Positions 1-33,133 of a stretch of 64,000 nt of DNA are shown piece by piece. Numbering within the stretch: position 1 is the first letter of the stretch; every line of letters starts with the position of its first letter. The translations under genes were made by a program, and so were the position numbers. Source of the stretch: Acidobacteriota bacterium (lineage in GTDB: Bacteria > Acidobacteriota > Thermoanaerobaculia > Gp7-AA8); contig JAXDJV010000010.1 of NCBI GenBank assembly GCA_034667465.1, forward strand, positions 6,874 to 70,873, read 5' to 3'. Under the pieces are notes generated by a model. That model was not told the origin of the DNA, made no database searches, and saw nothing but the letters and a program-made list of their open reading frames with translations.

Positions 1-197
1 GCCCACTGCGTCGCACCGCGGGTAATGCCCGCGCGGATCGGAGAAGCCGGTTTTGGGGTGTGCATCCGGCGGTCGGATAGAGCGTCCTTCCTGCCAGAGT
101 GCCTCTGTCTGTTAACCAGCTTGAAATGAGTAATTTACGTGAAATTGACGCGCGATCTCGTCGCTCGCGATCCGCACACCTGTCCAGCAATCAGACG

Positions 198-989
198 TTA
201 TTCGAGCCGGAAACTGACCACCAGCTCGTGCTCGACTTCGTGCGCTTCGCCGTCGACTTTGAAAGGACGGAAACGCCACGTGCGGATTGCGCGGACGGCC
301 GACTCCTCGAACTTCGGCCAGCGGGGATGTTCGAGCACGACGACCTCTCTCACGTGGCCGTCTTTCCCGATGACGTAGCGCAGCGTGACGTCGTCTTCGC
401 GATGCAGCATCCGGGCATCTTCCGGATATTGCGGGAAGAGCTTCTTCTCGACGTAGAGCGGCAGGTTGACGTTCCGTCCGAAAAGCACGCGATCGCCGAC
501 CATCACGCCGCCCAGAAGTCCGTCCCGCTTTCCCTCCGCAACGCCGTTGCCGCTGCCGCTCCCCGATCCGCCGCCCGTTCCATCCTGTCCGTCGCTCGCG
601 CCTGTGGGCGAAGGGAGCGCCGTGAACGCGGCGAGTGAGAGCGTCGCGGTGCGCATCGGCACGACCGGAATCGAATCAGGGATCACGGTCGGCGCCACTT
701 CCAGCTCGGGTGGCGGCGCAACCGGAGTTGACGCCGGAACCGGCGTCGCAGGATTCGCCGGACGCGCGGGAGCGCCGGACGGAAGCGGGGGCGGGGGAGC
801 GGGGGCGGCGGCGATGGAGTACGGACGGACGAGCCGCGGCGGCTGATCGGGAAACACCGCACGCCACTGCGGCGCAATCAGAAACACCGCGAGGATGATG
901 ACGTGCGTCGCGATCGAGACCGGCAGCGATCGGTACGCCGCCTGGTGCGTACGCGTATGAAACGCCTCCGGAGCAACGGTCTCGAACAT
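198..989 (-). CDS. TonB family energy transducer (TonB C-terminal domain protein)
   Basis: N-terminal TM anchor (SIATHVIILAVFLI), Pro-rich and Gly-rich linkers, C-terminal YPEDAR...VTLRYVIGKDGHV...AVRAIRTWRFRP typical of TonB_C. Confidence 0.85.
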   Translation of the reverse strand: MFETVAPEAFHTRTHQAAYRSLPVSIATHVIILAVFLIAPQWRAVFPDQPPRLVRPYSIAAAPAPPPPLPSGAPARPANPATPVPASTPVAPPPELEVAPTVIPDSIPVVPMRTATLSLAAFTALPSPTGASDGQDGTGGGSGSGSGNGVAEGKRDGLLGGVMVGDRVLFGRNVNLPLYVEKKLFPQYPEDARMLHREDDVTLRYVIGKDGHVREVVVLEHPRWPKFEESAVRAIRTWRFRPFKVDGEAHEVEHELVVSFRLE

Positions 990-1030
990 TCGGTCTGCAG
1001 AGCTTAACGCGCCGCGGAGACCTCATGCGG

Positions 1031-1375
1031 TTACATGCGCGATTCGCGCAGCAGGCGATTGGCGCGCGCCACACCGACGCTCGTCACGATGATCGCGCCG
1101 ACGACGATCGCGGCGAGGTTCGCGCCGACGTAAATCTCCTGCGGCATCGTCGCAACGAGCGGAGTGGCGGCGATGACCAGCTGAACGATTCCGAGCCGGA
1201 CAAAATCGCGACCGGTCGCTTCATTCGCGTCGTACCAGACCGATTCACTCGCGGCGGTGGCGGGGAGGCGCAGGCCATACCAGGGATTCGGTGCGACACG
1301 ACGCTGCTTCAGCGGAATCCCCAAACCGGTGACGAGCAGCCCGGCGGCGAAGAACATCAATTCAAATCGCAGCAT
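1031..1375 (-). CDS. SdpI/YhfL family membrane protein
   Basis: 114 aa, three hydrophobic segments, PNPWYGLRLP...VWYDAN motif resembling the SdpI family GxR...W...N signature. Confidence 0.7.
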   Translation of the reverse strand: MLRFELMFFAAGLLVTGLGIPLKQRRVAPNPWYGLRLPATAASESVWYDANEATGRDFVRLGIVQLVIAATPLVATMPQEIYVGANLAAIVVGAIIVTSVGVARANRLLRESRM

Positions 1376-1425
1376 GGCGGATCAGGTCGCCGGTCCCGGT
1401 TCTCTCGCGTCCGGATAGACACCCA

Positions 1426-4158
1426 TCAGCGGCCTCCTCCGTAATCATATCGCTCGAACTCGATCGTTGACGGCCTGCCGGTTCGCGCCGACTCGGCATA
1501 CGCCTCGTACATCCGCTGCTGCGTCGGGAGCCATCCCTCGTGCAGGTCGCGTCCCCGTTTCATCGCCGCTTCCGCCCCTTTGTAATCGCCGCGCGCGTAG
1601 AGCAGGCGCGCTCTCGCGGTCAATGACGCCAGGTTGACTCGTACTTTCTCCGCACGATCGAGCATTCGCTGTGCTTCATCGAGCTGACCGCGACGCGTCA
1701 GCAGATAGGCGCTGTTCGCGTCGACGCGTTGCGCGACATCGGGACTTCCGAGCGGATCGCTGACCGCTCGGGCCTGATCGAATGCGCGCTGTGCCGCATC
1801 GAACTGGCCGAGGTATGTGCGCGCGAATCCGATGTTCACGAGCGCGATCGCTTCCACGCGCGGGTTATGAATCTGTGCGGCGATCGTTGCCGCTTCCTGC
1901 GTCTGCTGCAGCGCTTCCTCGATGTGGTCCATCGCCCAGAGCGCGATGGAAAGATTCACGAGCCCGAAGATCTCGTTGCCGCGGTCGCCGCTCTTTCGTG
2001 AGAGCGTCAGCTGGCGTCGTGCATAAGCGGCAGCACCCGGATAATCGGTCGCATCGAGGCGTGTTGATGCGAGATTGCCGAGCACTTTTACGGTCATCGG
2101 AAAGTCGTTGAGCTTCTCCGCCATCTCGAGCGTTCGCAGGTAGTAGCGTTCGGCCGCGGCGCTGTCTCCCTTCTCAGCCTCGAGGATGCCCATGTTGTTG
2201 TACACGCGTGCGAGATCGCTGGCACTGCGCAGAGACGTGAACGTTTGCAGCGCGGTGCGGTTCCACCCGCGCGCGTCATCGAGCCGGTTCTGATGCCAGG
2301 CCACGACGCCGAGGAGCCGCTGGGCGTGGCCGGCCATCTTCAGATCGCGCAGCTGTTGCGCGACGACGAGCGATGCGCGCGCGATGCGATCGGCGTCCGC
2401 GTACTGCCCGCGATCGATCAGATCGTCGGCGCGGGTGAGGTCGATCTCCGCGACGAGCCTTCGATCGCCTTTTCGGGTGGCGAGTTTCCGCGCGTCGTCG
2501 AGCAGTGCGTCGGTGCGGGCGACGTCGCCGGTGAGACTGCTGCAGCGCGCCAGCTGTACTTCCGCCCAGGCGAACTCCGGGTCACGATCGATGCAAACTG
2601 TGAAGTACGGCACGGCGGCCTGCGGCCCTTTCGTCAGGAACTGCTGCACGCCGATCGCGTATGCGACGTTCGCGAAGTCATCGAACGAATAGCGCTCGCG
2701 AATGTCGATCCTGCGCGCTGCCGGATCGAGCCGAGGGGCGAGACGCGAAGTCAGGTCGTTCGCTGCATCGGGAAGAGTGGCCGCCGACACTTTGCCCGGC
2801 GCTTCATCGCCGTCGCGAAGGAGCAGGCGATAGCTGATTCCGTACTGCCCCTCGCTCGAGGTGACAGTGGCGGCGAGGAGCGTATCTGCGCCGAGGACGT
2901 CGAGCAGCCGCGTGCGCGCGCCAGGTGTGAGCGCGGAGGTGCGCGCGATGCCGAGGTTCTTCATCGCTTTCAGCACGTCATCGGCGGGGACGAGCTGTAC
3001 GCGATGGAGCCCGCCGAGCCCCTGCATCACCATATCCATCAGCCCGAGCTCGACCCATTCGGTCCCGCGCTGGTTTGTCTCGTTGCGGAACGGCAGCACG
3101 GCGATTTTTCCATCGCCGTGTTTCGTGAACAGCGGTCGATCGGCAAGGCGTTGTGTGATGAACATCGCCACGACGGCGACGGCGATGATCGTCGCTCCGA
3201 CGGCCGCGAGGATGGCGTTGCGGCGAACGCGTTGCGGACGCGATGCGATCCGCTCCAGCTCGCGCACCGTTGCTTCAGCATCGGGACGCTCTTCCGGATC
3301 GGGATCGGTGAGGCCGCGGACGAGACGCGTGATGTCGCGATCGCCGGTGCCGGTCAGCGTGAGATCGGCCTTGCGAACTTTCGCGAGCAACTCCGTCGTC
3401 GACGGCGTTTTGCCGTATGGGCTCGCGCCGTGATTGAGCAGTTCGTACAACAGGATGCCGAACGAGTAGAGATCGCTCGCGGCGGTGAGCGGGAGTCCGC
3501 GCGCCTGTTCGGGCGACATGTAGTGAACGGTGCCGACAAGCGTGCCGGCCGACGTGCGCGCCCAGTCGATCGATTGCATCGGCTCGGTGCGGCGTTCCAT
3601 CAGCACGGTTTTCTCCGTCGCAGCGACTTCGGGCTCGGGCATCACCAGTTCGGCGGTCTCGTCGATCGATGAATCGTCGTCCTGCACGAGACGGGCGAGA
3701 CCGAAGTCGAGGACTTTCACCTCGCCGTCGCGCGTCAGCATCACGTTGTCGGGTTTCAGATCGCGATGGATGATTCCGCGCGCGTGAGCGAAGGCGAGCA
3801 CGCGCGCGAGCTGCACCGCGACGCTGACTCCTTCGGCGCCGGCAAGCCCTTCCGCGATCGCCGTTCGCAGCGTGCGGCCTTCGATCAGCTCGAGGACGAG
3901 ATAGTTTCCGCTCGCTTCCTCGATGACGTCGTAGATGCCGCAGATGTTCGGATGATCGAGCTTCGAAAGCAGACGCGCTTCGCGCAGAAATCGCGAACGG
4001 ACGCCGGAGTCGACGAGCTTGTTCGGCTGGATGACTTTCAGCGCGACCGGACGTTCGAGCCGCTCATCCCAGCCGCGATAGACCTCTCCCATTCCGCCGG
4101 CGCCGATGAGCGCGTCGATGCGGATTCGTCCGATGTGGCTGCCGGGCGGGAGCGACAT
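1426..4158 (-). CDS. Hanks-type Ser/Thr protein kinase with TM segment and TPR repeats
   Basis: [40 protein letters not shown] and DLYSFG motifs; TM helix [20 protein letters not shown]; helical TPR-like C-terminus. Confidence 0.95.
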
Positions 4159-4313
4159 GGTTTGCGTGGATGAATCTTAATCCTGCCGCGCCCCGCGGAA
4201 GGCTCTGCCTCTTTTGTTACGGAAGGCGGGTAGGGAAATCGCCCCGGCCGTCACACCTCAGAGTGGAGCGTCCATTCGTCTGGCAGGTCGATCAACCGGG
4301 GGAGGCCTCGTTT

Positions 4314-4952
4314 ATGGGACAGGCAACACGATCGCTCGAGCGCGCCCTGCTCGAGAGATTGAGCGTCGGTGACTGCGACGCGTTCTGGAGTCTGTGGATG
4401 CTGCACCGTCCGCATCTGCATGCGGTTTGTTACCGCCAGATGCAGTGGGTCGTCGCTGACGCCGACGACGCGGTCAGCCGCTCGATGCTCCTCGCGCACG
4501 CGAAGCTGCCGGAGTATGCGATGGAGATCGTCGACGTCGAAGCGTGGCTGACACGCCTGACGTGCAACGTCTGTCTCGACATCAAGAAAGAGCGCGGCCG
4601 CGGCGTGCGAAAAGCGGAATCGCTCGACGAACAGTCGCTGACGCGGCGCGAAGCGACGCTCCCGGAGCCGCTCTCGCCGGAGGATGCGTGCGTCTCGACG
4701 CAGATGCGCGAATCGATTGCCGGCGCGATCGGACGACTGCCCGAGCCGCTGCGCATCGTGGCGCTGATGCGTTTCGTCCAGGAAGCGTCGTATACGGCCA
4801 TCGCCGAAAAGCTCACCATCAGCGAAGCGAACGCGCGCAAGCGCGTGCAGCAGGCGCGGACGATGCTGCGTCCGCAACTCGTTCACCTGCGCGGCGACGA
4901 GCTACGCGTCACTGCGCCTGGAGCACGAGGAACTGCGGATTGCTCGCCCTGA
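4314..4952 (+). CDS. ECF-type sigma-70 factor
   Basis: Region 2 (DADDAV...AWLTRLTCNVCLD) and region 4 (LPEPLRIVALMRFVQEASYTAIAEKLTISEANARKRVQQAR). Start moved to ATG 4314 because GGAGG lies at 4301. Confidence 0.88.
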   Translation: MGQATRSLERALLERLSVGDCDAFWSLWMLHRPHLHAVCYRQMQWVVADADDAVSRSMLLAHAKLPEYAMEIVDVEAWLTRLTCNVCLDIKKERGRGVRKAESLDEQSLTRREATLPEPLSPEDACVSTQMRESIAGAIGRLPEPLRIVALMRFVQEASYTAIAEKLTISEANARKRVQQARTMLRPQLVHLRGDELRVTAPGARGTADCSP

Positions 4953-6720
4953 GTCCCACCGACGGGCATTCGACGTAAACGTAGTAAACACCCGGCGACG
5001 GCGAGGTGAAGTCCACCTCATATCGCCCGTCGCCGCGCGGCTGCAGCGCCAGCCGTTCCGACCACGCGCCGTTCGCCTGCATGATCAGCGCGCGGGCGTC
5101 GGCCAGCGCGTTCGCCGGCAGCTTCGTCTTCGCATCGGTGAGACGGAACGCCAGCTGCGTCTTTTCGCGCGCCGTGATGATCCGCTGTTTCGTCAGCTGC
5201 TCGATGTTCAGCGGTACGCGCGGCTTCGCCGCGGCGATGTCGGGATTCTCCGCGACGTTCACCGTGAAGCAGGAGATGACGCGCGGTGAATCGATGAAGA
5301 CGGCGACGTCGTAGAGTCCCGCCTCCGGCATCGTCGCGGTCGTCGTAAACGTTCCCGGCTTTCCTTCGCGCAGGCTGCGATTCACGACGAGTACCGCCTG
5401 CGGCGGATGGTGGTAGTTCGAGAAGTGGCCGATTGGTGCCGCCATCCCTTCCTTGTAGAAGTAGACCTCGCCGTCCGCCGGGTTCGCGACGAGCACGGCG
5501 TTCTCGCCGGCCGCGGGCACGATGCCGTCGGCGGCGGTGAGTCGCGGCATCTTCCCGAAGTTTTCCTGGCCGCCGGGAAACTCGACCACCGCAAGCGCGC
5601 GTCCTTCTTTGCCGATATTCGCGAGCGGAATCATCAGCACCAGTTCGCTCTCGCGGCGACGAACGTACGCCAGCGAATCGGTGAAGGTCACTTCGAACGG
5701 ACCGCCTTCAAGCTCGCCGGTCTGGATGACGCGATTCGACGACACGTCGACGATGTGCATCAGGTCCTTCGCCGGATTGAGCGTGAATCCGTAGCGGCCG
5801 CCCGGCGCGAAGCGAATCCGTTCCAGTCCCGGCTCGGTCATGATTCGTCCGACCGGTTTCTTCGCGCGCGGATCGAGGACCGTGATCGCGCCGTCGCTGC
5901 TGGCGATGTAGGCGAGGTTGCTGAGCGGCGACCAGTCGACCGACAGCGGTTTCGCGCCGGCCGGTCCGCGCGCCACCTCTTTCAATGTGGCGACGTCGAT
6001 GATGCTCACCGTGCCGTCGTCGCCGTTCGTGACGATGATCGAGCGATTGTCGGGCGTCGCGGCGAGATCGTGCGGCCCTTTTCCCGTTGCGATCTTCGCG
6101 GCGACGGTGAGATCGGCGGGGCGAAGCGCTGTGACGCCGTCGCGCGTCGAGATCCAGACGTAATGTCCGTCCGGCTGTTCGACGATGCGCCGCGGTTCGA
6201 TGCCGGCGTCGAACGTCGAGATGATCTTCCAGCGACCTGTGTCGATTGCCGTTACCTTTCCGGCGGCCGGTGACGTGACGAGGAGACGCGCGCCGTCAGC
6301 TGTCAGCGTCCAGTCGAAGCCGGGCGACGGGAGCTCGAGCATGCCGATGAGCTGCGTTCCGCCGAAGCTGAAATGCGGATCGACGATGGTCAGCGTGCCG
6401 TCGCCGTTCATCGCCACGACGTAGTAGACGTTGAGGTCGAGCGAGGGACGTTGATAGACATTGCCGGCGACGAACGTCGCGACGGTGGCCGTGCACTGTT
6501 TGCGGTCGAGCGGCTTGTCGCCGGCGGATTTGTTGAACCACGCGGTCGGAAAGACGCCGCCGAGCGGAGCGCCGGTGGTCTGATCGCGCAGCGTCACTTC
6601 GACGCGGGCGGTGTCGCCTTCACGTGCGTTCGCGACGTCGAGACCGACGACGATCCCGCCGTCCGTCACCTTCTGAGAGACGAGCGCCGCAAGCGCCAGC
6701 ACACCGAGGAAGTTCGTCAC
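4909..6720 (-). CDS. Secreted YVTN/cytochrome-d1-type beta-propeller protein with C-terminal Ig/YtkA-like domain
   Basis: Repeated propeller blades (TADGARLLVT, TPDNRSIIVTN, APGGRYGFTLN); signal-like N-terminus from GTG 6720; C-terminal GRYEVDFT...PGVYYVYV. Confidence 0.75.
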   Translation of the reverse strand: MTNFLGVLALAALVSQKVTDGGIVVGLDVANAREGDTARVEVTLRDQTTGAPLGGVFPTAWFNKSAGDKPLDRKQCTATVATFVAGNVYQRPSLDLNVYYVVAMNGDGTLTIVDPHFSFGGTQLIGMLELPSPGFDWTLTADGARLLVTSPAAGKVTAIDTGRWKIISTFDAGIEPRRIVEQPDGHYVWISTRDGVTALRPADLTVAAKIATGKGPHDLAATPDNRSIIVTNGDDGTVSIIDVATLKEVARGPAGAKPLSVDWSPLSNLAYIASSDGAITVLDPRAKKPVGRIMTEPGLERIRFAPGGRYGFTLNPAKDLMHIVDVSSNRVIQTGELEGGPFEVTFTDSLAYVRRRESELVLMIPLANIGKEGRALAVVEFPGGQENFGKMPRLTAADGIVPAAGENAVLVANPADGEVYFYKEGMAAPIGHFSNYHHPPQAVLVVNRSLREGKPGTFTTTATMPEAGLYDVAVFIDSPRVISCFTVNVAENPDIAAAKPRVPLNIEQLTKQRIITAREKTQLAFRLTDAKTKLPANALADARALIMQANGAWSERLALQPRGDGRYEVDFTSPSPGVYYVYVECPSVGLRASNPQFLVLQAQ

Positions 6721-6757
6721 CTGACGAGGATAAGACGTTGCGGGTGGTGAGGATGTG

Positions 6758-6887
6758 AAGTCAAAGTCGGGGGTCACATCTGGAAATTTGACTTTAGCAA
6801 CCGGGAATCCGGCCTTTCAGCCGTGACGCCTGAGTGATCAGGCAACCGTTAAGTCAAATTTCCAGATGTGACCCCCGACTTTGACTT
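6758..6887. repeat. Perfect 37-bp inverted repeat (6758-6794 / 6851-6887) around a 56-bp spacer
   Basis: AAGTCAAAGTCGGGGGTCACATCTGGAAATTTGACTT and its exact reverse complement read directly from the sequence. Confidence 0.97.
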
Positions 6888-6948
6888 TCCATTCACAGTC
6901 GGCCGCGGCGCGTCGTCTTTTAGTAGACAAACGGTGTCCAAATCCTCC

Positions 6949-8433
6949 ATGTCCAGCGCCACCGTAGTTGCCGTACTCGATGCTCGCCCGACGGGCGAGT
7001 TGATCGCGACCGTCGCCCGAAACGCGGGCTGGCTCGAAGTCCGAGCCGATCTCCTCGGCGATCTCGACGCTTCCTGGCTTCGCTCGCACTTCCCCGGCGC
7101 GCTGCTCTATTCATTGCGCAGCCAAGCCGAGGGCGGGGCGGCGGAAGGTGACGCCAGCCGCCGCGCGCGACTCATCGCCGCCGCCCGCGACTACGACTTC
7201 ATCGATCTGGAGCTCGGCGATCTCGTTCCCGCCGTGCTGAAAGCAATCCCGCCGTCAAAGCGGATCATTTCCTCGCGCCGCTCCACGCCCGAGCTCGCCC
7301 ATCTCGGCGACCGGCTGCGCGTCATGACGTCGGTCGAAGCGCACCTCTATCGCATCTCCGCCATCGCAAAGCGCAGCGGCGATGAGCTCGCGCCACTGCA
7401 GCTCCTCAAAGAAACGGGACGCACCGACGTCACCGCGTACGCGACCGGTCCGATCGGCCTCTGGTCGCGCATCGTGGCGCCGTGGCTCGGCGCGCCGATC
7501 GTCTTCGGCCGCGTTGGCGACGACGACACCGCGGAAGGGTTGCCGTCGATCGATCGCCTCGTCGGCAGCTTCGGTTTTCCCGATCTCCCCGAAATCGATG
7601 AGCTGTTCGGCATGGTCGGTGCGCCGGTCATGCATTCGCACTCGCCGCGCATCCACAACACCGCGTTCCGCGCCACCGGCCGCAACGCGCTGTACGTCCC
7701 GTTTCACGTCGACGAGTTCTCCGACTTCTGGTCGCGCGTGATCAGCAACGGCGCGCTGGAGTCGCTCGGATTTTCGATCAACGCGCTCTCCGTCGTCTCG
7801 CCGCACAAAGCGATCGCGCTCGGCGCGGCACGCTCGAAGAGTCCCGTCGTCCGGCGTGCCGGCTCGACGAACTTCTTTCGACGCGGCGCCGACGGCGAAT
7901 GGGTCGCGGAGACGACCGACGCCGAGGGCGTGATACTCACGCTGCGCGAACGTGGCATTCCATGCGCGAAACAGCGTGTGGCCGTCATCGGCTGCGGCGG
8001 CTCCGGCCGCGCGATGGCGGCAGCGCTCGATCAGGCAGGCGCCGATGTCACGCTGGTCAATCGCGGTCTCGAGCGCGCGTCGCTCGCCGTGCGACTGCTT
8101 CGTCTGCCGTTCATGCCGCTCAACTCGTTTTCCGGCGACGGATTCTCGATTGTCGTCAATGCGACGCCGGTCGGACGCGACAGCGACGAGATCTCGTTTC
8201 CGATCGAAAGCCTCAAGCGCGACGCCACGATCGTCGATCTCGTCTATCGCGACACGCCGACGCAGCTCATGACCCGCACGCGCGGTCCCGGACGAATCAC
8301 CATCGACGGCTGGGACATGCTCATCACGCAGGCGCTCGAACAGTTTCGATTGATGACCGGCGACGAAATGCCGGAAGGACTGGCACGCCAAACCCTCGGT
8401 CTCGAACCGGCCGAGTTGATTGCCGAATGCTGA
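6949..8433 (+). CDS. AroD-AroE-like fusion (type I dehydroquinase-like domain + shikimate dehydrogenase)
   Basis: N-domain LEVRAD, SLRSQAEGG, FIDLE; C-domain HSHSPRIHN, SPHK, TTDAEG, IGCGGSG, VNATPVG, DLVY, ML..QA. Confidence 0.88.
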   Translation: MSSATVVAVLDARPTGELIATVARNAGWLEVRADLLGDLDASWLRSHFPGALLYSLRSQAEGGAAEGDASRRARLIAAARDYDFIDLELGDLVPAVLKAIPPSKRIISSRRSTPELAHLGDRLRVMTSVEAHLYRISAIAKRSGDELAPLQLLKETGRTDVTAYATGPIGLWSRIVAPWLGAPIVFGRVGDDDTAEGLPSIDRLVGSFGFPDLPEIDELFGMVGAPVMHSHSPRIHNTAFRATGRNALYVPFHVDEFSDFWSRVISNGALESLGFSINALSVVSPHKAIALGAARSKSPVVRRAGSTNFFRRGADGEWVAETTDAEGVILTLRERGIPCAKQRVAVIGCGGSGRAMAAALDQAGADVTLVNRGLERASLAVRLLRLPFMPLNSFSGDGFSIVVNATPVGRDSDEISFPIESLKRDATIVDLVYRDTPTQLMTRTRGPGRITIDGWDMLITQALEQFRLMTGDEMPEGLARQTLGLEPAELIAEC

Positions 8434-21955: not shown

Positions 21956-24900
21956 TCAGTGCGCGGGAGGAGTGGTGTTCGGTTTCTTCCCCTGCTCGAT
22001 CGGTTTCGGGGCGCTGAGTTTCGTCGGCGCCTGTTCATCCTTCGGCTTGTCTTCACCGATGTGCTGACGCGGCGACGAGACGAAGCGGCCGCTCTCACCC
22101 TGTACTTCAGGCTGCGGTGTTTGCGGCTGGCCGAGCAGAATGACGTTCTCCACCGGATGCGTGGCGATGCCGCCATTCGGAGAGATCGCGGTCACGACGC
22201 GCGGATCGTTCGTCGTGATGCCGCTGCTCGTGGTGCTGAAACTCCAGAGACCGTTTTCGCCGACCTTCACATCGGCCGACAGCTGCGTGCCGTTGCCCGG
22301 CGTGCCGGGCTGGCTGAGGAACAGCGACACGGTCGCGGCGCGGTTCCCGTTTTTCGGATTTGCGGCGCGATCGACGTAGACGGTCGTCGAGCCGAAGACG
22401 GTCAGCTCGCCGTTGCTGAACTGCGAGCCGGCGATGCGCACCGCATCCGATCCCGATTTCTCCGTGACGCGGAGGACGCCCCAGAGCCCGAGCTCGAGGA
22501 AGTTCGCCGGAGTCGTGCGCCAGAGATAGTCGCCTGCGACCGGCCAGACGTTCTTCGACATGTCGCCGCCACCGGCGCTCGGCAGATCGATCTCGTACGC
22601 CATGTTGGTGCCGAAGTTGTCGCGCGCGCCGAGGTTTTGAGAGTCGACGTTGTTGCCAATGGAACCGGAGGCGTTTGCGGCGGTGCCGGTGTACGGCAGT
22701 TCCTGCCACACGTGTCCGTGCAGCGCGAGCACCTGCTGATCGCCGGCGCCGCCGGGATGGAGCAGACGCATGCGCGCCGGCGTTCCCGCAGCCGCGGCGA
22801 AGATCGGCGTCTGCGGTTCGGCGAGCACGAGTCCGTCCGAATAGCCCTGCCAGATGTCGGTGCGACCGACGAACGTCGACGTCGCGGCGTTGAAGCGATA
22901 CGCCATCGGCTCGGTGCGGAAGTTGACGGCGACGCGCGTCGAGCCCGCGGGTGAAGTCACGGTCGTGCCGGCGGGCGGCGTCCAGGTTGCACCCGGCCAC
23001 GTCACGCTGGCGAGATCGTCCTGCGTCAGCAGCACGAATTCGCGGTAGCGCAGTCCGACCGGATTCGTGCAATCGCCGCCGTTGTAAATCGTCGCGGAAC
23101 CGTACTGCAGCATGTTGTTGCGCGGGTTGAAGATGTCGGGACAGGCGATGGTGTTCGCCGGCTCGACGACAAGACCGCCGACGAGACCGTGCAGATCCTG
23201 CTCGAGCGGATCCGACGGCGTCAGATTCACGCCGCCCAGCTCGATCGGTCTTCCCGTCACCGCGCCACCCGACGAAATCTTCGTCTGTCCGGCGTACCAG
23301 TAGAGCGTCTTCTCGCCGCCGATCGGCACTGTCTGATCGGGATTGAATCCGACGTTCATGCCTGTGCTGCGCATCGCATCGAACGACAGCAGCGCCGGCG
23401 TCAGGCTGGCCTGCTTCGACGGCAGCAGCTTAATGGTCGGCGCGAACGCCGCGGTCGATCCGCCCTCCGTGAACTGCGGCGCGGTTGGATCGAAACCGTT
23501 CGCGATCGTCAGCGCGATGCAGTCGCCGGCGTTCGCGCGCATGATCAGCGGCTCGGTCGTCGACGTGTTGTCAGACAGCGTGAACATCATCGGCTGATTG
23601 TTCGTGATGGTGTTGTTGAAGCGGCCGCCTGCGCCTGCGCCGCGGCTGTTCATGTTGAACGGAGACGGCGTCGACGAAACGACGCGGAACCGTTTGACCT
23701 GCGACGGCGAGACCGGCGGGCAGCTGTAGCCCCATTCGGCGGTGGCCGGCGGCAGCGCAGTGACGTTACGGTTCGTGCTGAGCTCCACGAGATTCGCGAG
23801 CTTCGATTTGTACGCGCGGAAGATGCCCCACGTACCGTCGACGATGCCGTGTTTCTGGTTCGACGCATCCGGCTGGTAGAGGTAGTCGGTCCAGTTGTGC
23901 GCGGCGTCGGCCGACGGGCTGGCGCGCGGCGTCTCGAAGATGAACTCGAAGTGTTCCGAGATGCCCATCGACTGCGAGCTGCGGAATCCCGACTGATCCC
24001 ACGACGGCTCGAAGAGCCACTTCATGCCGCCGACCGTGAATGCGTGCGGCAGCATGTGCGCGCCGGCGACGATGCGAACCTGCACGCGATCGCCTTCATA
24101 CGCGCGGAGCAGCGGCGTGTACGGATCGCCCGGCTGCATCCCTTCGGTGAGCGGTTTGCGCGGCCAGATGAAGCCGCCCGGTTTGGTCGGATTGATTTCG
24201 CCGCCGAGCGGCGGCTGGCTGTTCATCTGCGGATCGTTGCGGGTGATGTTCGATGCGAAGACGTACGAAAGATCGGTCGTCTTCGGATCGCTGGCGGAGG
24301 TGCCGGGCGAGACGCGCCAGGGGAGCGGCTCGTTGCGATAGTTGAATGACGTCGTTCCCTGCGTCGGACCGGCGCTGATGATCTGCGGCTGCGGCATCGG
24401 CCCGAGGTCGGTCTGCTGCGGAACCGGATCGATGACGTTCGACGGATCGGACCAGCCGACGTTCGGGTCGCTGCTCGCTTTCTTTTTGCTGGTGGCGCGA
24501 TACGCGAACTGGAAGTCCTGCATCGCCAGCGCGAATTCGCGATAGGTATTCAGCTCCTGTCCGGGAGTTTCGATGACCGCGTTCCAGGTGGTCGGGCCAC
24601 CGTCGTCGCGCGAGTGAAGCGGATCGCCGCTCTCGCCCTTCGACCACGTGCTGCCGGTCGGTTCGACGAGCAGCGCTGCGTAGAGGCCGGTCTGCTGATG
24701 CGTCGACGGACCGAAGTGATCGTGCGTGAAGACGGTGCGAAGCGTGCGCGTGCCGTTGATGTTCTCGTGCGGAATCGGATCGGCGAACCAGCGCTGTATG
24801 GTCGTCTGCGCTCCGGCCCATTCTTCTTTGCAATGTTTCGTGCGCGCCGGATCGGTCGATTCGCAGATTTCCTTCGGCGGCGCGGCCGGGTTGCGCTTCA

Positions 24901-27721
24901 CGCGTTTGGTGTTGTTGGTGTTGCACTTCTTCAGATCGTTCGCGGTCAGCGCGAGGCCGCCGCACTGGTTGATGCCTTTGAGCAGATCCTGCACTTCCTC
25001 GTAGCTGAGCGTGCCGTCCTCGTAGTTGTAGCCGTTCGCGGCGCCGTCCGATGACGTCACGTCGAACTTCACGAGGTGGATGTGTTGGCCGATGATGTCG
25101 GTCGGCGTGCGTACTTCGTAGTCATCGAGCAGGAAGTAGTTCGGCACGAGGTTGGTGTGCCAGAACTCGACGCCCTGTCCGGCGTTCGCGCGGATGAAGA
25201 ACGGCTGCGGCGGCACGTCGGAGTACGCGGTCGGCAGCACGTCGCGCCACAGCGTGATCAGTCGCGCCTGCGGGTAATGCCACCCCTTCTTGTTGAAGAC
25301 GAAGTCGGTCTGGATCACCGCCGCTTTGTATTTGATCCAGTCCGTGTCCCTGATCGGCCGGCACTGCAGATCGCCGGCCGGCGGATTGTTCTCGTCGTAC
25401 GGTATGAGTCCCGGATTCGCGTACGGTGCGCCGGAGATTCGCGTCAGGCCGTTCGTCCGATACGGACTCGCGCTCCCTTCCGGCGTGAACGACGGATGGA
25501 AACATTTCTCGTGGTAGGTCATCGCCACTTTTTCTTCCGCGGTGCCGTCTTCCGGCAGCTCGTAGGCGTTGACCTTGTCCATGTCCTTGCTGAAGTTCAG
25601 CGTGGTGTGCTGCTCGTTGTAGATGTTCGCGTTGATGATGAGATGCCGCGGCAGGCCGCCGTCGTACGGCTTGTTGGCGGCGTCGGTCGCGAAGTCGAGC
25701 GGCGGATGCGGCGCGCGAACGCCGGCCACGCCGGGGATGAAGAACGGGAAGCCGGGGTTGATCCCTTTGTTCATGTCGCCCGCGTCGACTTCCGCTTTGA
25801 AGCCGACCGGCTTCACGCCCGGGGTGCCGTTCGGATCGTTCACCGGGACGAGCTTGACGGCGGCCGGCATCGGCGGCATCGCAATCGTCGGCATCGGAAT
25901 CAGCGCCGGAATCGGAGTGCCGTCGGCGATCTCGCCGTCGGGCAGAGCGCGCGTTTTGTAGCGCGCCAGTTTGTCGAATCCGGTGCTCGCATACGGCGAG
26001 CCGACTTCGTACACGTCATGCGAACGCCAGAGCGCCCACATGCCGGCCGCGAAGTGCGGATAGAAGTGGCAGTGGAAGATCGAATCGCCGACGACCTTGT
26101 TGCGATTGCCGCCGCCGTTGAATGCGATCTCCAGCGTGTACGCGCTGCCGGGATTGATCAGCTGACTGTCGAGATACGCCGAGCCGTCGCTGTTCGGCGA
26201 ATGCACCCACTGATGCGCGTGCAGATGATGAACGTGCGAAACGCCGGTGCCCGAATGGAGGATTCGGAACTTCACCCGGTCGTTGATGTAGCTGTGATAG
26301 ACGTTCGACGGGTCGTCATCGAAGAGCGCCTTGTGGGCTTTGCGCACCGGAATGACGCCGGTCGGCGCATTGCCGGCCACGCCTTCCTTGCACGGTACCG
26401 ACGGAACGCCGCTGATCGTGACGGCGGTCTGGTTTTCGAAGCCGTCGCCGCATGGCACGTTCGCCGGCACATCGACGAGCATGGCCGGATCGCCGCTCGA
26501 CCACGCGCTCAGGAAGAATTCTTCGAAGCGGCAGTCGGGGCAGCTGCCCATCGGTCCGATGCCGAAACGATTCGCGAGAATCTCCGCACCGATGCCTCCG
26601 GTGCCGTAGTTGATCGCGAACGCGTCGCCTGCCGCGCTCAGCGTGTTCGCGATGCCGGCCGGCGCGCCCATGATCGGGAAAGCCTGCACGGCGTCGTTCA
26701 GCTCGTGATACTCGATCGTGAATTCGCGATACGGATCGAGACGATTCGGTTCGATGTTGATCTTCTGCAGGTTCGGATCGCTCGTGCCGGCCGGGAAGCG
26801 GCCGTGATGCGGTCCGGTGATGACCGCGGTCAGATCGGTATGAACGATCTCGTTGCGATTGTCGAGCATTGCCAGGACCGGCGTGCCGGCCATCGGATTT
26901 CCCGGAGGATAGACGGCGTCGTATTTGATGAACGGCTGGCCGATCGGACTGAAGCCGCCGCCCTGCGTCGTGTCGATCGCGAACTCGAGATCGGAGTGCG
27001 TGACCTGGCTGCGATACCACTCGGCGCCGCGCGGCTGCACGTTGACCGCGCCGAAGAGTCCGGCCGTCTGTTGCGCGCCGTCGTTCGGCTGGTTCTGGCC
27101 GCCGAACGCTGCGCCTTCGCTGTTGAGCAGGAAGGTTCCTTCTTCGGTCGCGCGCAGCGTGTACGTGATCGATTTCGTATCGTCGGGCGGAATCGTCGAG
27201 TTGGCGTTCGCGCCGACGAACGAGCCGTCGTCGAGAATCGTGTTCACCATCTGCATGCCGGCGACATGGACCGATGCGTAGCGCGTTGCCGGCTGCGTCG
27301 CCACCGGCGCATCCGCGAGCAGGTTGCGGAAGGTGATGGCGAGACAGTCGCCGACGTTCGCGCGCAGCACGATCGGGCGCGGACGTTTGCCGTAGCGCAG
27401 CATCACGTTGCCGTGCGTCAGCGTCGTTCCGGTTCCGCTCTTCGGCACGACGTCGCGTTCGAGCGCGAACACCATTCCTTCGGGCATCGCAGCGCCGAGG
27501 CGGTTCACGAGATACGGCTGATCGAGTGCGACGACTTTCGCGGTGATCGTCCGTTCGCATCCGGTGTTGCCGGCCATCGGAGCCGGTTCCGGCGCCGGCA
27601 TCGGCGCGGGCTGCGGAGCCGGTGCGGGCTGTGGTGCGGGCGGCGCGCCGTACGACGTGCACGAGGCGAACAGGAGTCCGAGGATCAGGGCGAACAGACC
27701 ACGGACACGAAGTGCTGGCAT
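21956..27721 (-). CDS. Very large multicopper oxidase lipoprotein, MnxG/McoA-like (putative Mn(II) oxidase)
   Basis: Copper-ligand motifs HVHHLHAHQW, HCHFYPHFAAGM, HTNL, HIHLVKFD, HDHFGPSTHQQ, HGHVW; lipobox LFASC. Start placed at ATG 27721 (GGAGG upstream). Confidence 0.82.
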   Translation of the reverse strand: MPALRVRGLFALILGLLFASCTSYGAPPAPQPAPAPQPAPMPAPEPAPMAGNTGCERTITAKVVALDQPYLVNRLGAAMPEGMVFALERDVVPKSGTGTTLTHGNVMLRYGKRPRPIVLRANVGDCLAITFRNLLADAPVATQPATRYASVHVAGMQMVNTILDDGSFVGANANSTIPPDDTKSITYTLRATEEGTFLLNSEGAAFGGQNQPNDGAQQTAGLFGAVNVQPRGAEWYRSQVTHSDLEFAIDTTQGGGFSPIGQPFIKYDAVYPPGNPMAGTPVLAMLDNRNEIVHTDLTAVITGPHHGRFPAGTSDPNLQKINIEPNRLDPYREFTIEYHELNDAVQAFPIMGAPAGIANTLSAAGDAFAINYGTGGIGAEILANRFGIGPMGSCPDCRFEEFFLSAWSSGDPAMLVDVPANVPCGDGFENQTAVTISGVPSVPCKEGVAGNAPTGVIPVRKAHKALFDDDPSNVYHSYINDRVKFRILHSGTGVSHVHHLHAHQWVHSPNSDGSAYLDSQLINPGSAYTLEIAFNGGGNRNKVVGDSIFHCHFYPHFAAGMWALWRSHDVYEVGSPYASTGFDKLARYKTRALPDGEIADGTPIPALIPMPTIAMPPMPAAVKLVPVNDPNGTPGVKPVGFKAEVDAGDMNKGINPGFPFFIPGVAGVRAPHPPLDFATDAANKPYDGGLPRHLIINANIYNEQHTTLNFSKDMDKVNAYELPEDGTAEEKVAMTYHEKCFHPSFTPEGSASPYRTNGLTRISGAPYANPGLIPYDENNPPAGDLQCRPIRDTDWIKYKAAVIQTDFVFNKKGWHYPQARLITLWRDVLPTAYSDVPPQPFFIRANAGQGVEFWHTNLVPNYFLLDDYEVRTPTDIIGQHIHLVKFDVTSSDGAANGYNYEDGTLSYEEVQDLLKGINQCGGLALTANDLKKCNTNNTKRVKRNPAAPPKEICESTDPARTKHCKEEWAGAQTTIQRWFADPIPHENINGTRTLRTVFTHDHFGPSTHQQTGLYAALLVEPTGSTWSKGESGDPLHSRDDGGPTTWNAVIETPGQELNTYREFALAMQDFQFAYRATSKKKASSDPNVGWSDPSNVIDPVPQQTDLGPMPQPQIISAGPTQGTTSFNYRNEPLPWRVSPGTSASDPKTTDLSYVFASNITRNDPQMNSQPPLGGEINPTKPGGFIWPRKPLTEGMQPGDPYTPLLRAYEGDRVQVRIVAGAHMLPHAFTVGGMKWLFEPSWDQSGFRSSQSMGISEHFEFIFETPRASPSADAAHNWTDYLYQPDASNQKHGIVDGTWGIFRAYKSKLANLVELSTNRNVTALPPATAEWGYSCPPVSPSQVKRFRVVSSTPSPFNMNSRGAGAGGRFNNTITNNQPMMFTLSDNTSTTEPLIMRANAGDCIALTIANGFDPTAPQFTEGGSTAAFAPTIKLLPSKQASLTPALLSFDAMRSTGMNVGFNPDQTVPIGGEKTLYWYAGQTKISSGGAVTGRPIELGGVNLTPSDPLEQDLHGLVGGLVVEPANTIACPDIFNPRNNMLQYGSATIYNGGDCTNPVGLRYREFVLLTQDDLASVTWPGATWTPPAGTTVTSPAGSTRVAVNFRTEPMAYRFNAATSTFVGRTDIWQGYSDGLVLAEPQTPIFAAAAGTPARMRLLHPGGAGDQQVLALHGHVWQELPYTGTAANASGSIGNNVDSQNLGARDNFGTNMAYEIDLPSAGGGDMSKNVWPVAGDYLWRTTPANFLELGLWGVLRVTEKSGSDAVRIAGSQFSNGELTVFGSTTVYVDRAANPKNGNRAATVSLFLSQPGTPGNGTQLSADVKVGENGLWSFSTTSSGITTNDPRVVTAISPNGGIATHPVENVILLGQPQTPQPEVQGESGRFVSSPRQHIGEDKPKDEQAPTKLSAPKPIEQGKKPNTTPPAH

Positions 27722-27744: not shown

Positions 27745-27805
27745 AAGACGCGTTTCCGTCCCCTTTCGTGAAGGGATTTCACGAGGGGCGAGGGGAGCGC
27801 GTCTT
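27745..27805. promoter_or_regulatory. Nested inverted repeat in the divergent intergenic region (candidate operator or hairpin)
   Basis: AAGACGCG (27745-27752)/CGCGTCTT (27798-27805) enclosing TCGTGAA-N5-TTCACGA (27766-27784). Confidence 0.4.
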
Positions 27806-27817
27806 CCCGTACAGAGC

Positions 27818-28597
27818 ATGCTGAAGGTCGTCATCAACTGCGGCCGTTGTGAGGCGTTCATCGGCGACTGCCTTGCCTCCGTCCGGCGGCAGAGTTACGG
27901 CGCGTGGCAGGCGCTGGTGACGGTCGATCGCCGCGGCGACAAAACGTACGAGCGCGCACTTGAAGCGAGCGGCGGCGACGAGCGTTTCGTGATCGTGCAA
28001 AACGCGCGGCGCCGTTATCCGATGCGCAACATCGTCAGCGCGATCGAACGGAGCGGCGCCGAGGCGGAAGACATCATCGTCATCCTCGATGGCGACGACT
28101 GGCTGATCGATGACGACGCGTTCGCGCGCATCGCCGCCGCCTACGAGGAGACCGGCTGCTGGATGACGTACGGCAGCTGGATCAGCAATCAGCCCGGACA
28201 TCCGGGGCGCTGGCCGGCGTATCGGGATGACGTCGCCGACTTTCGCGGCGAGCGCTGGCTCGGCACCGCCATTCGTACGTGGAAGAAGTGGCTGTGGGAT
28301 CTCATCGATCCGAATGATTTTCGCGACGAGCGCGGACGCTGGCTGCGGATCACCGAGGATCTCGCCTGCATGTTTCCGATGTTCGAGATGGCGACGACGC
28401 GGCGCGCGCATCACATCGCCGAGCCGCTCATGCTCTACAACCGGCTGAGCCATCACGATCCGAAGCGGCGCATGGCCGAGGAGGGGATTCGCAACGCGGC
28501 GTGGCTGCGGACGCGGCCTCGTTACGCGCCGCTGACATTCACAAAAGAGGCTGTCGAATCGTCTTTGCAGACGACAGAAGCGCGTTTCCCGGCATAA
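27818..28597 (+). CDS. Glycosyltransferase family 2
   Basis: C-terminal part of track ORF 25076..28597 from ATG 27818; FIGDCLASVRRQSY, VILDGDDWL, ED, LMLY. Confidence 0.85.
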   Translation: MLKVVINCGRCEAFIGDCLASVRRQSYGAWQALVTVDRRGDKTYERALEASGGDERFVIVQNARRRYPMRNIVSAIERSGAEAEDIIVILDGDDWLIDDDAFARIAAAYEETGCWMTYGSWISNQPGHPGRWPAYRDDVADFRGERWLGTAIRTWKKWLWDLIDPNDFRDERGRWLRITEDLACMFPMFEMATTRRAHHIAEPLMLYNRLSHHDPKRRMAEEGIRNAAWLRTRPRYAPLTFTKEAVESSLQTTEARFPA

Positions 28598-28608
28598 GGA
28601 GGTAAGTC

Positions 28609-29040
28609 ATGGGTGGCAAGACCAATGGTGGCGGTGGTGGTGGCGGCGATGTCGTCGTAATCACCGTCAGCCGCGCATGCGCCAAAGAGTTCCTGACCGC
28701 GATCACGATCGCCCTCGGCTCGAAACCGATCAAGAAGATCACCAAGGGCAAGAAGGGTAAAGGCGGAAAGGGCGGCGGCAAGTCGACCGGCGGCGGCGGA
28801 AAAACGACGACGGGCGGCAAGACGACGACCGGCGGCGGGAAGACGACGACGGGCGGCGGAAAAACCACGACCGGTGGCGGAAAGACCACGACCGGTGGCG
28901 GCACGACGACGGGTGGCGGCAAGACGACGACGGGTGGCGGCAAGCCTCCGAGCGGCGGCAAGACGACCACGGGCGGCGGGACGACCACGACCGGCGGCGG
29001 CAAGTCGACCACCGGCGGCGCCAAAACCGCTAAGCGGTAA
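28609..29040 (+). CDS. Gly/Lys/Thr tandem-repeat peptide (putative modified precursor)
   Basis: AGGAGGT RBS at 28597-28603; short helical N-terminal segment, then about 10 GG(G)K/TTT-type repeats. Confidence 0.75.
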   Translation: MGGKTNGGGGGGGDVVVITVSRACAKEFLTAITIALGSKPIKKITKGKKGKGGKGGGKSTGGGGKTTTGGKTTTGGGKTTTGGGKTTTGGGKTTTGGGTTTGGGKTTTGGGKPPSGGKTTTGGGTTTTGGGKSTTGGAKTAKR

Positions 29041-29049
29041 CGCCTTCGC

Positions 29050-31119
29050 GTGTCGAGCATCTCTCCGGGGCGCGAGCGTTTGCTCCGCCCCACGATGCGA
29101 CCGGTTCGCCCGCCGCGGCCGAGCGCACGCGTGGAGCGACTCGTGCGCGAGCACGCTGGCGAGCATCGCGATCTCGCGCTGCTCGTCGACGTCGTGCTCG
29201 CGCAACGCGGCTATCTCCGTGCGCTCGCCCGGACGGCAGCGGAGCTTGCGCGCAACGGCGCGGAAGCGTGGCCTGTGCGCCGCGCGGCGACGCTCGTTCT
29301 CGAACATCTTCTCCTCCGAACGGACGACGTCTCCGAATGGCACTGGTGGATGCGCGAGCTGCACATCACCGGCATCGACGCGCGACAACTTCGCGCGCGA
29401 ATGTCGCGTCTCTCTCGCGTTCATGAATCGATCGCGACCGATTCAGGGCTCGGCGACTTCTTCCACATCGCCGCACGCGATTGCCGGCTGACGCTGGCGC
29501 GATACACCTTCGGCGCGAACGAAGTGATCGCCCAAATCGAGCGCGATCTCCGCCGCTCGCGCGGCCTGCGCAGCAAGCCCGATTACGGTCATCGTCTCGT
29601 CTACGAAGAGGCCGATCACATCCTCGACACGCTCGCGCCGATGGATCGCGCGATCATCGAGCACCTCGGCCGCGACGCAACCATTCGCTTCACCACCGAG
29701 CGGACGACCGACGACATCAACACGCTCATCGAGCATCCGGTCGGTACCGTCGTCGCGGTGATCAAGCCGCCCGGCAGCGACATCGAGATCGAGATCAAAC
29801 GCGCCGGCGTCCGCGAGCCGTTTCCGTTCGACGTCGTCTTCGCGCGCGGCGGCTACATCGTTCCGAACTCGCACTTCCTGCACGGCGGCTCGATGGAACA
29901 CCTCCTCGCATTCGAGACGTCGCAGGCGAGCGTGCTGTCGCGGCTCTATCGCAGCGTGCACGGCGTCGACGCACCGATGTCGCGCACGATTCACCTCGCC
30001 ACCGTCTACACGATTCCGACTCCGGATGGCGAAGTCGACGTGCTCGATTACTTCACCGATCCGAGCGTCTTCGGTGAGCGCTACAAAGCGATGCGCGCGC
30101 GGATGGATGACTGCGTCGCGGAGCTCGCGAATCAGCAGAAGAAGGATCGCGAGCCGCCGATCAACGAGCTGTCGCTCACGCTCGAGTTCCTCGGGCAGAT
30201 CAAGCCGGCGCAGGCGGTGCAGGTCGGAACAACATCGTTTCGTTTGGAACGGCTCGCCGCCTATCTCGCACCGAACGGCGACGCTCGTTTCTTCGGCCGC
30301 GATCGCGGCGTCGACTTCACACCGGCCGCCGCACGGCGTTTCGCTGATGAACTGCTCGACGAGATCCTCTGCGTCTACGAGCCGCCGCGCGTTGCGTATC
30401 GCAGCTACGCGAGCTACCTCGACGCCGCGTATGCGGTGCGCGCGAATCGCCGCCGCGCGAACGCGAACTACCTCGACGCGATGACGCAGTTCGGCCGCAT
30501 GTGGGGAACGCTCCTCGCCGCGCGCGGACACAGCGAAGGGGAATCGTTCGTGTCGCGCAACGCAGGACTGCGCAGCGTCTTCGCGGACGGCCAGTGGCAG
30601 CTGCGAATGGTCTTCATGGACCACGACTCGCTCTCGTTCGCGTCGCGCCATCGCAACGCCTACCATCCCGCCGGATCGGTGCGTTGCGCCGCGAAAGACG
30701 CGCGCTTCATCTTCGGCGGCTACTCGGGCAAGCGATACGTGCGCGGCTCCGTCGATTACCTGCGCGAGATCTATCGCGTGAATCGCGTCACCGAACGCCG
30801 CGGCATGACCGCGATGCGCGAAGCGATGAAAGCCGCGTACGACCTGACGCAATCGACGATGCGCAACGACGCCGCGACGAGCGAGCTGTTCCAGGTCGCG
30901 TTCATGGAAAAACTCGGCGACTGGGACCGGGTCGTCGGCCGCTACATGCGCACGCCGCGCAACGCCGCCGCGCGCAACGCGTGGAAGAGCGAGACGCGCG
31001 CGTTTCTCGCGGAGCGCGGCTACACCGAGCCGCTCGCGAACGAGTACGTCGAGACGATCATGAAGTACTCGCGCTTCCTGCGGCGGATCGCGTTCCTGTT
31101 CGCCCCCCCGTCATCCTGA
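29050..31119 (+). CDS. Hypothetical 689-aa protein with atypical protein-kinase-like motifs
   Basis: EIEIKRAG (beta3 Lys-like), GHSEGESFVSRN (catalytic loop-like), VFMDHD (metal-binding-like). The ORF is solid; the function is inferred. Confidence 0.6.
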   Translation: MSSISPGRERLLRPTMRPVRPPRPSARVERLVREHAGEHRDLALLVDVVLAQRGYLRALARTAAELARNGAEAWPVRRAATLVLEHLLLRTDDVSEWHWWMRELHITGIDARQLRARMSRLSRVHESIATDSGLGDFFHIAARDCRLTLARYTFGANEVIAQIERDLRRSRGLRSKPDYGHRLVYEEADHILDTLAPMDRAIIEHLGRDATIRFTTERTTDDINTLIEHPVGTVVAVIKPPGSDIEIEIKRAGVREPFPFDVVFARGGYIVPNSHFLHGGSMEHLLAFETSQASVLSRLYRSVHGVDAPMSRTIHLATVYTIPTPDGEVDVLDYFTDPSVFGERYKAMRARMDDCVAELANQQKKDREPPINELSLTLEFLGQIKPAQAVQVGTTSFRLERLAAYLAPNGDARFFGRDRGVDFTPAAARRFADELLDEILCVYEPPRVAYRSYASYLDAAYAVRANRRRANANYLDAMTQFGRMWGTLLAARGHSEGESFVSRNAGLRSVFADGQWQLRMVFMDHDSLSFASRHRNAYHPAGSVRCAAKDARFIFGGYSGKRYVRGSVDYLREIYRVNRVTERRGMTAMREAMKAAYDLTQSTMRNDAATSELFQVAFMEKLGDWDRVVGRYMRTPRNAAARNAWKSETRAFLAERGYTEPLANEYVETIMKYSRFLRRIAFLFAPPSS

Positions 31120-31202
31120 GCGAAGCGAAGGATCCGGGCGGTGGGACTCGCTGCGGTAGCGCGCCCCGCCCACGCAGATCCTTCGCTAACGCTCAGGATG
31201 AC
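31110..31202. repeat. 93-bp palindromic REP/MITE-like element
   Basis: GTCATCCTGAGCGAAGCGAAGGATC...GATCCTTCGCTAACGCTCAGGATGAC; second copy at 56295-56390. Confidence 0.88.
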
Positions 31203-33045: not shown

Positions 33046-33133
33046 CGTCTGCGAGGAAGACGCCGAGCCGCGCGCCGGCGTGAAAGAGGGTAGGGAAATG
33101 GTCACTTCCGACACTCCTTCAGTGGAGCCCCGA

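Follow-up and report, generated by a model that had tools for sequence, protein, structure and literature searches.

An inverted repeat between divergent genes of an acidobacterium is probably a doublet of a dispersed palindromic repeat family and not a promoter switch

REPINs, which RAYT Y1 transposases mobilise, are hairpin-forming doublets of REP units (Bertels & Rainey 2011, PMC3116915), and one end of the REP unit carries a tag, GTAG (or CGTC) (PMC3733652). RAYT-like 'TIRYT' genes flanked by TIRs, with one Acidobacteria-specific group, are described by Di Nocera et al. (2013, PMC3733652), who give the motif GGGGWSAS as common to several of the TIRs that flank such genes. Bacterial MITEs and IS630-type insertions typically have TA and CTAG flanks (Delihas 2008, PMC2229807). 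Here we compare with these systems a perfect inverted repeat found in a 64-kb stretch of acidobacterial DNA, which we refer to as the window. A previous sequence-only reading of this stretch proposed that the repeat is a phase-variable inverton, or else a symmetric bidirectional promoter or operator giving both flanking operons identical control elements. We conclude, with a probability of roughly 0.8, that it is a doublet of a dispersed, non-coding palindromic family that is REPIN-, TIR-repeat- or MITE-like, and not a switch.

The repeat occupies positions 6758-6887, and the 64-kb window contains no other copy. Its left unit (6758..6794, plus strand, AAGTCAAAGTCGGGGGTCACATCTGGAAATTTGACTT), which belongs to the type B described below, has 8 bp of terminal self-complementarity and contains GGGGTCAC. 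Sequence comparison identified the right unit (6851..6887, minus strand) as its exact reverse complement over 37/37 nt, and the two arms enclose a spacer of 56 nt (6795..6850). The complementarity of the arms runs on imperfectly to 47 nt at 91% (6748-6794 / 6851-6897). Dinucleotide-preserving shuffles of the window did not produce a single match to the inverted repeat, and the 166-nt region around it folds at -100.7 kcal/mol (z = -12.6). The perfect 37-bp inverted copies noticed in the sequence-only reading are confirmed, and the finer details that it gave are present as well: each arm is bounded by AAGTCAAA...TTTGACTT, and the spacer holds the hairpin GCCTGA-GTGA-TCAGGC (6828-6843) and two direct repeats of GCAACCG (6797-6803 and 6842-6848). 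The window has one more hairpin-forming inverted repeat, unrelated to the first (GTCATCCTGAGCGAAGCGAAGGATC ... GATCCTTCGCTAACGCTCAGGATGAC), at 31107-31204, at the 3' end of a 689-aa ORF (29050-31119); it may represent a further small family of repeats.

To the left of the repeat, on the minus strand, lies a YVTN/YncE-type beta-propeller gene (4909-6720), to which a conserved neighbour, an ECF sigma factor gene (4314-4952), is convergent. To the right, on the plus strand, an aroD-aroE fusion (6949-8433) heads an operon of tailoring-type enzymes. Both long ORFs begin with MTPDFDF, as had been observed, and these longest-ORF starts (6777 for the propeller and 6868 for aroDE) fall within the arms, but neither of them is real. 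The likely start of the propeller gene is the GTG at 6718..6720, because the residues ahead of SYPRQ are not shared by the 95% and 82% relatives and because this start agrees with the 11-14 nt that separate CGTCTT from the start in the relatives. The 95% relative is the MAG "Acidobacteria bacterium RYN_27", whose DNA is 91.7% identical over 6.6 kb. The likely start of aroDE is the ATG at 6949..6951, since the Pfam and NCBIfam matches begin at 6949 and the gene call in the relative is 494 aa long. In RYN_27, the start of the propeller protein JWO97_4099 (L001 4001) was also called inside the arm, at an ATG that comes from the variable patch of the arm. N-termini called inside the repeat arms are annotation artefacts of the repeat. 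Synteny with RYN_27 stops just to the left of the ECF sigma gene (window 1-4206 vs L001 6563-9860), beyond which the window encodes a Ser/Thr kinase-TPR protein (1426-4158) and RYN_27 carries a nicotinate phosphoribosyltransferase gene. By its homologues, the source organism falls among soil Acidobacteriota that are related to Thermoanaerobaculia. Elsewhere in the window, at 48425-50525, the gene after one for an APH-like kinase has a HopA1 effector-family domain (E = 8e-35), which is unusual for a soil acidobacterium.

The arms belong to a family of 37-nt units of the form AAGTCAA-N23-TTGACTT. When 185,579 species genomes were scanned with the pattern AAGTCAA-N4-GGGGG-N14-TTGACTT, 11 loci were retrieved, each on a different contig of RYN_27, together with three chance matches elsewhere, and a scan of JGI metagenome contigs added 4 further copies of the unit. 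Further sites of the kind anticipated from the arm sequence thus exist in the genome of the 95% relative, at a minimum of 11 loci. The metagenome run X1, in which contigs match the window flanks at 100% identity, also appears to contain many copies of the family: the depth over repeat units overall is about 7-20 times that of the flanks, with a summed contig depth of 155 for the type-B arm vs 21 for the flank (9 contig pieces, 11-21x) and of 250-457 for type A vs ~20-21 for the flank, i.e. about 12-21 times. Additional public contigs match only 6758-6798 and then diverge into unrelated sequence. The genes that adjoin the family copies are housekeeping genes with nothing in common (YCII, DUF3617, TPR, radical SAM, PAP2, trigger factor, MBL, and Lon-N). 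The copies lie between ORFs, many of them directly against stop codons and some between convergent genes. TA is found at 21/29 outer ends, often as CTA...TAG, compared with a background frequency of 1.25%, and the full borders across the family read (C/G)TA-AAGTCAA...TTGACTT-TA(G/C). The window copy is an exception, with TG and TC at its outer ends. In the 82% relative (L002, a 4.5-kb Logan contig), both contig ends (1-30 and 4475-4509) stop inside a diverged unit, TAAAGTCAAAGTGATGGGGTCACATCTGTCAGTTTTACT, one of these ends lying at the orthologous promoter site; this indicates a related sub-family in the 82% lineage that breaks its assembly too.

Family units come in two types of 37 nt each, which agree over their first 20 nt and their last 8. 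Type A is a near-perfect palindrome, AAGTCAAMNTCGGGGGTC-T/A-GACCCCCGANKTTGACTT, and occurs singly. Type B is asymmetric and was seen only as inverted hairpin-forming doublets with the G-rich ends outward; the five doublets all have the same relative orientation, and their spacers measure 9, 16, 16, 35, and 56 nt. Conservation across copies extends over all 37 positions, not only the half-sites, and positions 8-11 form a hypervariable patch. The orthologous site of RYN_27, a separate assembly, has the same doublet architecture with 16 nt between the arms, a 40-nt indel relative to the spacer of the window. Save for a few bases the two spacers cannot be aligned, whereas the flanks are 91.7% and the arms 92% identical. 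The arms of the window differ from those of RYN_27 at three positions, with the same three changes in both arms, and this divergence (3/37) is about equal to the genome average of 8.3%. A private substitution in another RYN_27 doublet (locus L015) is likewise mirrored in both arms, and in every doublet the inner 21 nt are identical between the arms, private substitutions included. Arm-to-arm correction, through template switching at quasi-palindromes, or else selection that favours the hairpin would keep the arms identical; either process may account for the identity of the arms, and inversion by a recombinase would not be needed.

The content of a given site differs between strains. At L015 4551-4641, a gap between two convergent genes, RYN_27 has a 90-nt type-B doublet and the strains in X1, X3, and X4 have a 51-nt segment with a type-A unit, AAGTCAATTTCCGGGGTCTGACCCCGGAAATTGACTT; the filling of one gap by different family members in different strains indicates that the elements turn over. 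A comparison of four RYN_27 family loci with related metagenome contigs showed sites that were filled, sites at which contigs broke, and sites with another member of the family, and no clean empty site among them. At the site orthologous to the window repeat, the 82% relative (L002) has arm-like sequence; in the other 82-83% relative (L004), no recognisable unit was found in the 80 nt upstream. More distant relatives have an uninterrupted site at this locus, but the junctions are ambiguous.

Outside the repeat, the sequence TTCACA-N16-CGTCTT occurs once in each direction with mirror symmetry. The leftward -35-like box TTCACA (6754..6759, minus strand) shares 2 nt with the beginning of the left unit, and the leftward -10-like box CGTCTT (6732..6737, minus strand) is 11 nt upstream of the propeller start. 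The rightward boxes, identified by motif scan and orthologue comparison, lie on the plus strand at 6892..6897 (TTCACA) and 6914..6919 (CGTCTT). These divergent boxes explain why the inverted repeat runs on imperfectly past 37 nt. Between the window and RYN_27, the stretch of ~60 nt to the right of the repeat (6888-6948) hardly varies. TTCACA-N16-CGTCT[TAC] is found in both directions in 8/8 orthologous loci (16/16 sites), with distances from the -10-like box of 11-14 nt to the propeller start and 18-30 nt to the aroDE start, and relatives at 60-66% protein identity retain the same gene trio. Five of the eight loci, from three distinct genomes, have no insert. Their intergenic region is 90 nt long, and the TTCACA boxes abut in its middle as the palindrome TGTGAA(GC)TTCACA (TGTGAATTCACA or TGTGAAGCTTCACA). 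The position of the window repeat is the exact centre of this TGTGAA|TTCACA palindrome. The idea of a symmetric bidirectional promoter is correct insofar as both genes have identical, mirror-symmetric boxes; these boxes, however, flank the repeat and are kept in relatives that have no repeat.

Given the conserved 16-nt spacing to CGTCT[TAC] in both directions at the orthologous loci, the palindrome is probably formed by the -35 boxes of a pair of divergent promoters, which abut at its centre. A fixed 16-nt spacer in front of a CGTC -10 box is in the style of ECF sigma promoters, and the CGTC sequence, together with the conserved ECF sigma neighbour, suggests that an ECF-type sigma factor reads the boxes. 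The upstream region of the ECF sigma gene itself has the boxes at the wrong spacing and no well-spaced copy of the motif. A promoter scan detected neither a sigma-70-type promoter nor a promoter-like site inside the repeat. We also considered a CRP/FNR-type operator as the main reading of TGTGAA/TTCACA and rejected it, as the spacing of the half-sites varies from 0 to ~130 nt and that between TTCACA and CGTCTT is constant at 16 nt. Inserts at the centre of the palindrome are not limited to the window. One orthologous locus (L030) has a 12-nt insert at the same point, and at L031 2878-2989 (Thermoanaerobaculia MAG GCA_035525285.1) the promoter palindrome is split by a different, G+C-rich palindrome of 52 nt with AATT on both sides, resembling a 4-bp target duplication of the central AATT in TGTGAATTCACA. 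The centre of the promoter palindrome is either a permissive or a preferred insertion site.

The same motif is enriched in the window, with 6 matches vs 0.69 expected, and had 0 matches in 126 kb of unrelated loci; the 4 additional window copies were matched as TTCAC[AG]-N16-CGTCTT. A second back-to-back pair at 27745-27805 lies between two genes. On one side, a Shine-Dalgarno sequence and an ATG come after the motif in front of the gene for an MnxG-like multicopper oxidase of 1921 aa (21956-27721, minus strand); on the other, the ATG of a glycosyltransferase-like gene (27818-28597) is 12 nt downstream of the motif. Another copy (28538-28565) precedes a Gly/Thr-rich ORF of 143 aa (28609-29040, plus strand) with a GGAGG Shine-Dalgarno sequence and ATG after the motif, and the last (33057-33084) precedes a minus-strand gene near 33045. 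The Gly/Thr-rich ORF had no family match; a precursor peptide and a repetitive secreted protein are both conceivable as its product. Its GGKTTTGGG repeats are mirrored by an antisense Pro/Val-rich ORF (28539-29093, minus strand); of these two antiparallel ORFs, only the one on the plus strand has the promoter motif and a Shine-Dalgarno sequence. Judged from the motif, the linked genes look like one regulon, possibly under the adjacent ECF sigma factor (4314-4952).

The dispersal of the units, their two forms, the variable spacers, the paired substitutions, and the conserved promoter motifs that flank the repeat are the observations on which we base the assignment of the window repeat to a dispersed palindromic family. 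The element consists of two inverted 37-nt units, with their G-rich ends outward, around a freely evolving spacer, and would be a non-autonomous, hairpin-forming repeat inserted at the centre of an older, conserved TGTGAA|TTCACA palindrome. We infer that the element is mobile, and TA may be duplicated at insertion. At the window locus it is most likely a passenger and its insertion was presumably neutral; because insertion at the centre of the palindrome leaves both promoters intact, it would have been tolerated. Its persistence at the site in the 95% relative, together with the arm-like sequence in the 82% relative, could reflect co-option.

Among the described systems, REPINs resemble the acidobacterial family in being built from short palindromic extragenic units whose inverted doublets form a long hairpin, in having arms that are more conserved than the spacer, and in having copies that persist at orthologous sites. 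The acidobacterial units differ from REP units and REPINs in that they lack the GTAG tag, are 37 nt long, and are flanked by TA; the family has tens of copies, whereas REPINs have hundreds, and unlike REPINs it also has a separate, fully palindromic singlet form. The TIR repeat families are similar in their moderate abundance, in the presence of both singlets and dimers, and in their occurrence in the same phylum. TIRs of the TIRYT type, however, flank a TIRYT gene, and no such gene was seen beside the acidobacterial units in the window and the family loci. E. coli RayT and nine published RAYT/TIRYT sequences, used one by one and also combined into a profile, matched no ORF of the window or of ~150 kb of family loci; the top-scoring protein, at E = 0.06, was a luciferase-like monooxygenase. 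No transposase of any other type turned up in the window or these loci either.

With Correia/CREE elements of Neisseria and the IS630-linked RUP of S. pneumoniae, the acidobacterial element can be compared as a non-coding sequence of ~80-130 bp with long terminal inverted repeats and TA termini, with size classes that differ by an internal ~40-50 nt, with copies in intergenic regions and promoters, and with transcripts that would form stem-loops. In contrast to these MITEs, it is G+C-rich rather than A+T-rich, the window copy has no TA flanks, and its minimal form of 37 nt is far shorter than any described MITE. The clues to a mobilising enzyme diverge. GGGGTCAC in the window and GGGGTCAG in RYN_27 and in type A both fit GGGGWSAS, a motif of ~13 bits, and this fit is a suggestive lead towards a TIRYT enzyme of the Y1 type; the TA/CTAG flanks may instead point to a MITE or an IS630-type enzyme.

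Several other explanations of the window repeat were weighed against a doublet of a mobile family. The one that fares best, although we consider it unlikely, is a co-opted structured leader, in which a read-through transcript would contain a hairpin of ~130 nt that controls how stable it is or how it is translated, for instance by serving as an RNase III target. The great stability of the fold, the paired substitutions that maintain pairing, and the persistence of the element at its site in relatives are all compatible with such a role, and Correia elements are reported to have such effects (PMC2649163). On the other hand, the promoters proposed here would fire away from the element, so that neither mRNA should contain the hairpin, and the arms diverge from those of the relative at about the genome-average rate. 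An Rfam scan of 6000-7600 that included matches up to E = 10 returned nothing above noise.

The arms could also be an operator for a dimeric or tetrameric regulator, or promoter elements, that control both operons identically. AAGTCAAA-N21-TTTGACTT does resemble a spaced palindromic site, TTGACT is similar to a -35 hexamer, and the element has been retained at the locus in two or three related lineages. We nevertheless regard this explanation as quite improbable. The relatives at 60-66% keep the gene pair and TTCACA-N16-CGTCTT without the arms, and the family-wide conservation of the whole unit exceeds what half-sites alone would call for. The copies beside unrelated genes, against stop codons and between convergent genes in particular, argue that the arms are not the operator of the window locus, and no sigma-70-type promoter was detected.

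A mis-join through the repeat during assembly, as a possible origin of the whole inverted repeat or just of its spacer, had to be considered because the arms are repeats, at which assemblies break, and because the 56-nt spacer was found in no public (Logan) contig set queried, despite the presence there of 100% identical flanks. These contigs are built at k=31, at which a 37-nt inverted repeat hides the orientation of the spacer. The X1 contigs with 100% identical flanks run from the unique flanks into both arms and end exactly 30 nt (k-1) into each of them. The spacer of another doublet (L007) likewise has about zero depth in the X1 Logan contigs, so the absence of the window spacer may be technical. 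Moreover, the independently assembled RYN_27 has a doublet at the same site, and X2 contains a related short-spacer variant (joint 6796->6846) that has ACCGTTAAG in common with the window spacer. An assembly artefact is unlikely for the doublet itself, and we give a mis-join very little weight overall.

Least probable is the phase-variable inverton, in which a site-specific recombinase would flip the 56-nt spacer and thereby switch one or both operons: a perfect inverted repeat in a divergent promoter region, with the identical arms expected of an active inversion site, would suit it and recalls the inverted repeats next to promoters in fimS, Hin/Gin, and Bacteroides invertons, but, unlike in those switches, the promoter-like boxes are not enclosed by the repeat, the spacer is very short and differs in length between copies (9-35 nt in the other doublets and 16 nt in the orthologue, too short for a promoter), the same arms are dispersed over the genome at many unrelated loci, even between convergent genes, and, as the sequence-only reading had already remarked, no recombinase lies nearby, with no recombinase, integrase, or transposase domain among the 47 predicted proteins of the 64-kb window. 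Known invertible segments are far longer than 56 bp. A CRISPR array, suggested by the length of 37 nt, was rejected because the copies are inverted, dispersed, and self-complementary.

Returning to the doublet of a dispersed family, a more specific version of this interpretation can be put forward, which we hold tentatively and think more doubtful than probable. The family might be a REPIN-like system, not described before, in a lineage related to Thermoanaerobaculia, and a Y1 transposase of the TIRYT type would drive it; its forms would interconvert, and it would insert both at TA/CTAG and at palindrome centres. The perfect palindrome of 37 nt and the asymmetric doublet unit of 37 nt would then interconvert in place. 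Insertion would prefer TA/CTAG, often at stop codons, where TA and the first A of the element would restore TAA. The centres of existing palindromes would be targeted too, as the three inserts in three lineages (L030, L031, and the window element) might illustrate.

The window repeat is a worked example of a false-positive inverton. Inverted-repeat scans of MAGs, such as those of the PhaseFinder type, will flag REPIN- or MITE-like doublets, and the dispersal of the arms and the length of the spacer in relatives provide a cheap filter against such false invertons. The analysis also corrects two gene starts, at a repeat inside which callers start genes both here and in the GenBank relative. As a by-product, it yielded the conserved motif TTCAC[AG]-N16-CGTCTT, which links genes for the propeller, the aroDE-led operon, the multicopper oxidase, the glycosyltransferase, and the Gly/Thr-rich peptide. 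For the lineage, it documents a small palindromic repeat family in uncultured acidobacteria, where such elements have barely been described, with GGGGWSAS as a lead towards the Acidobacteria-specific TIRYT transposases. The main value of the repeat lies in the caution that it offers to inverton screens, and it has also led to what appears to be a conserved promoter motif.
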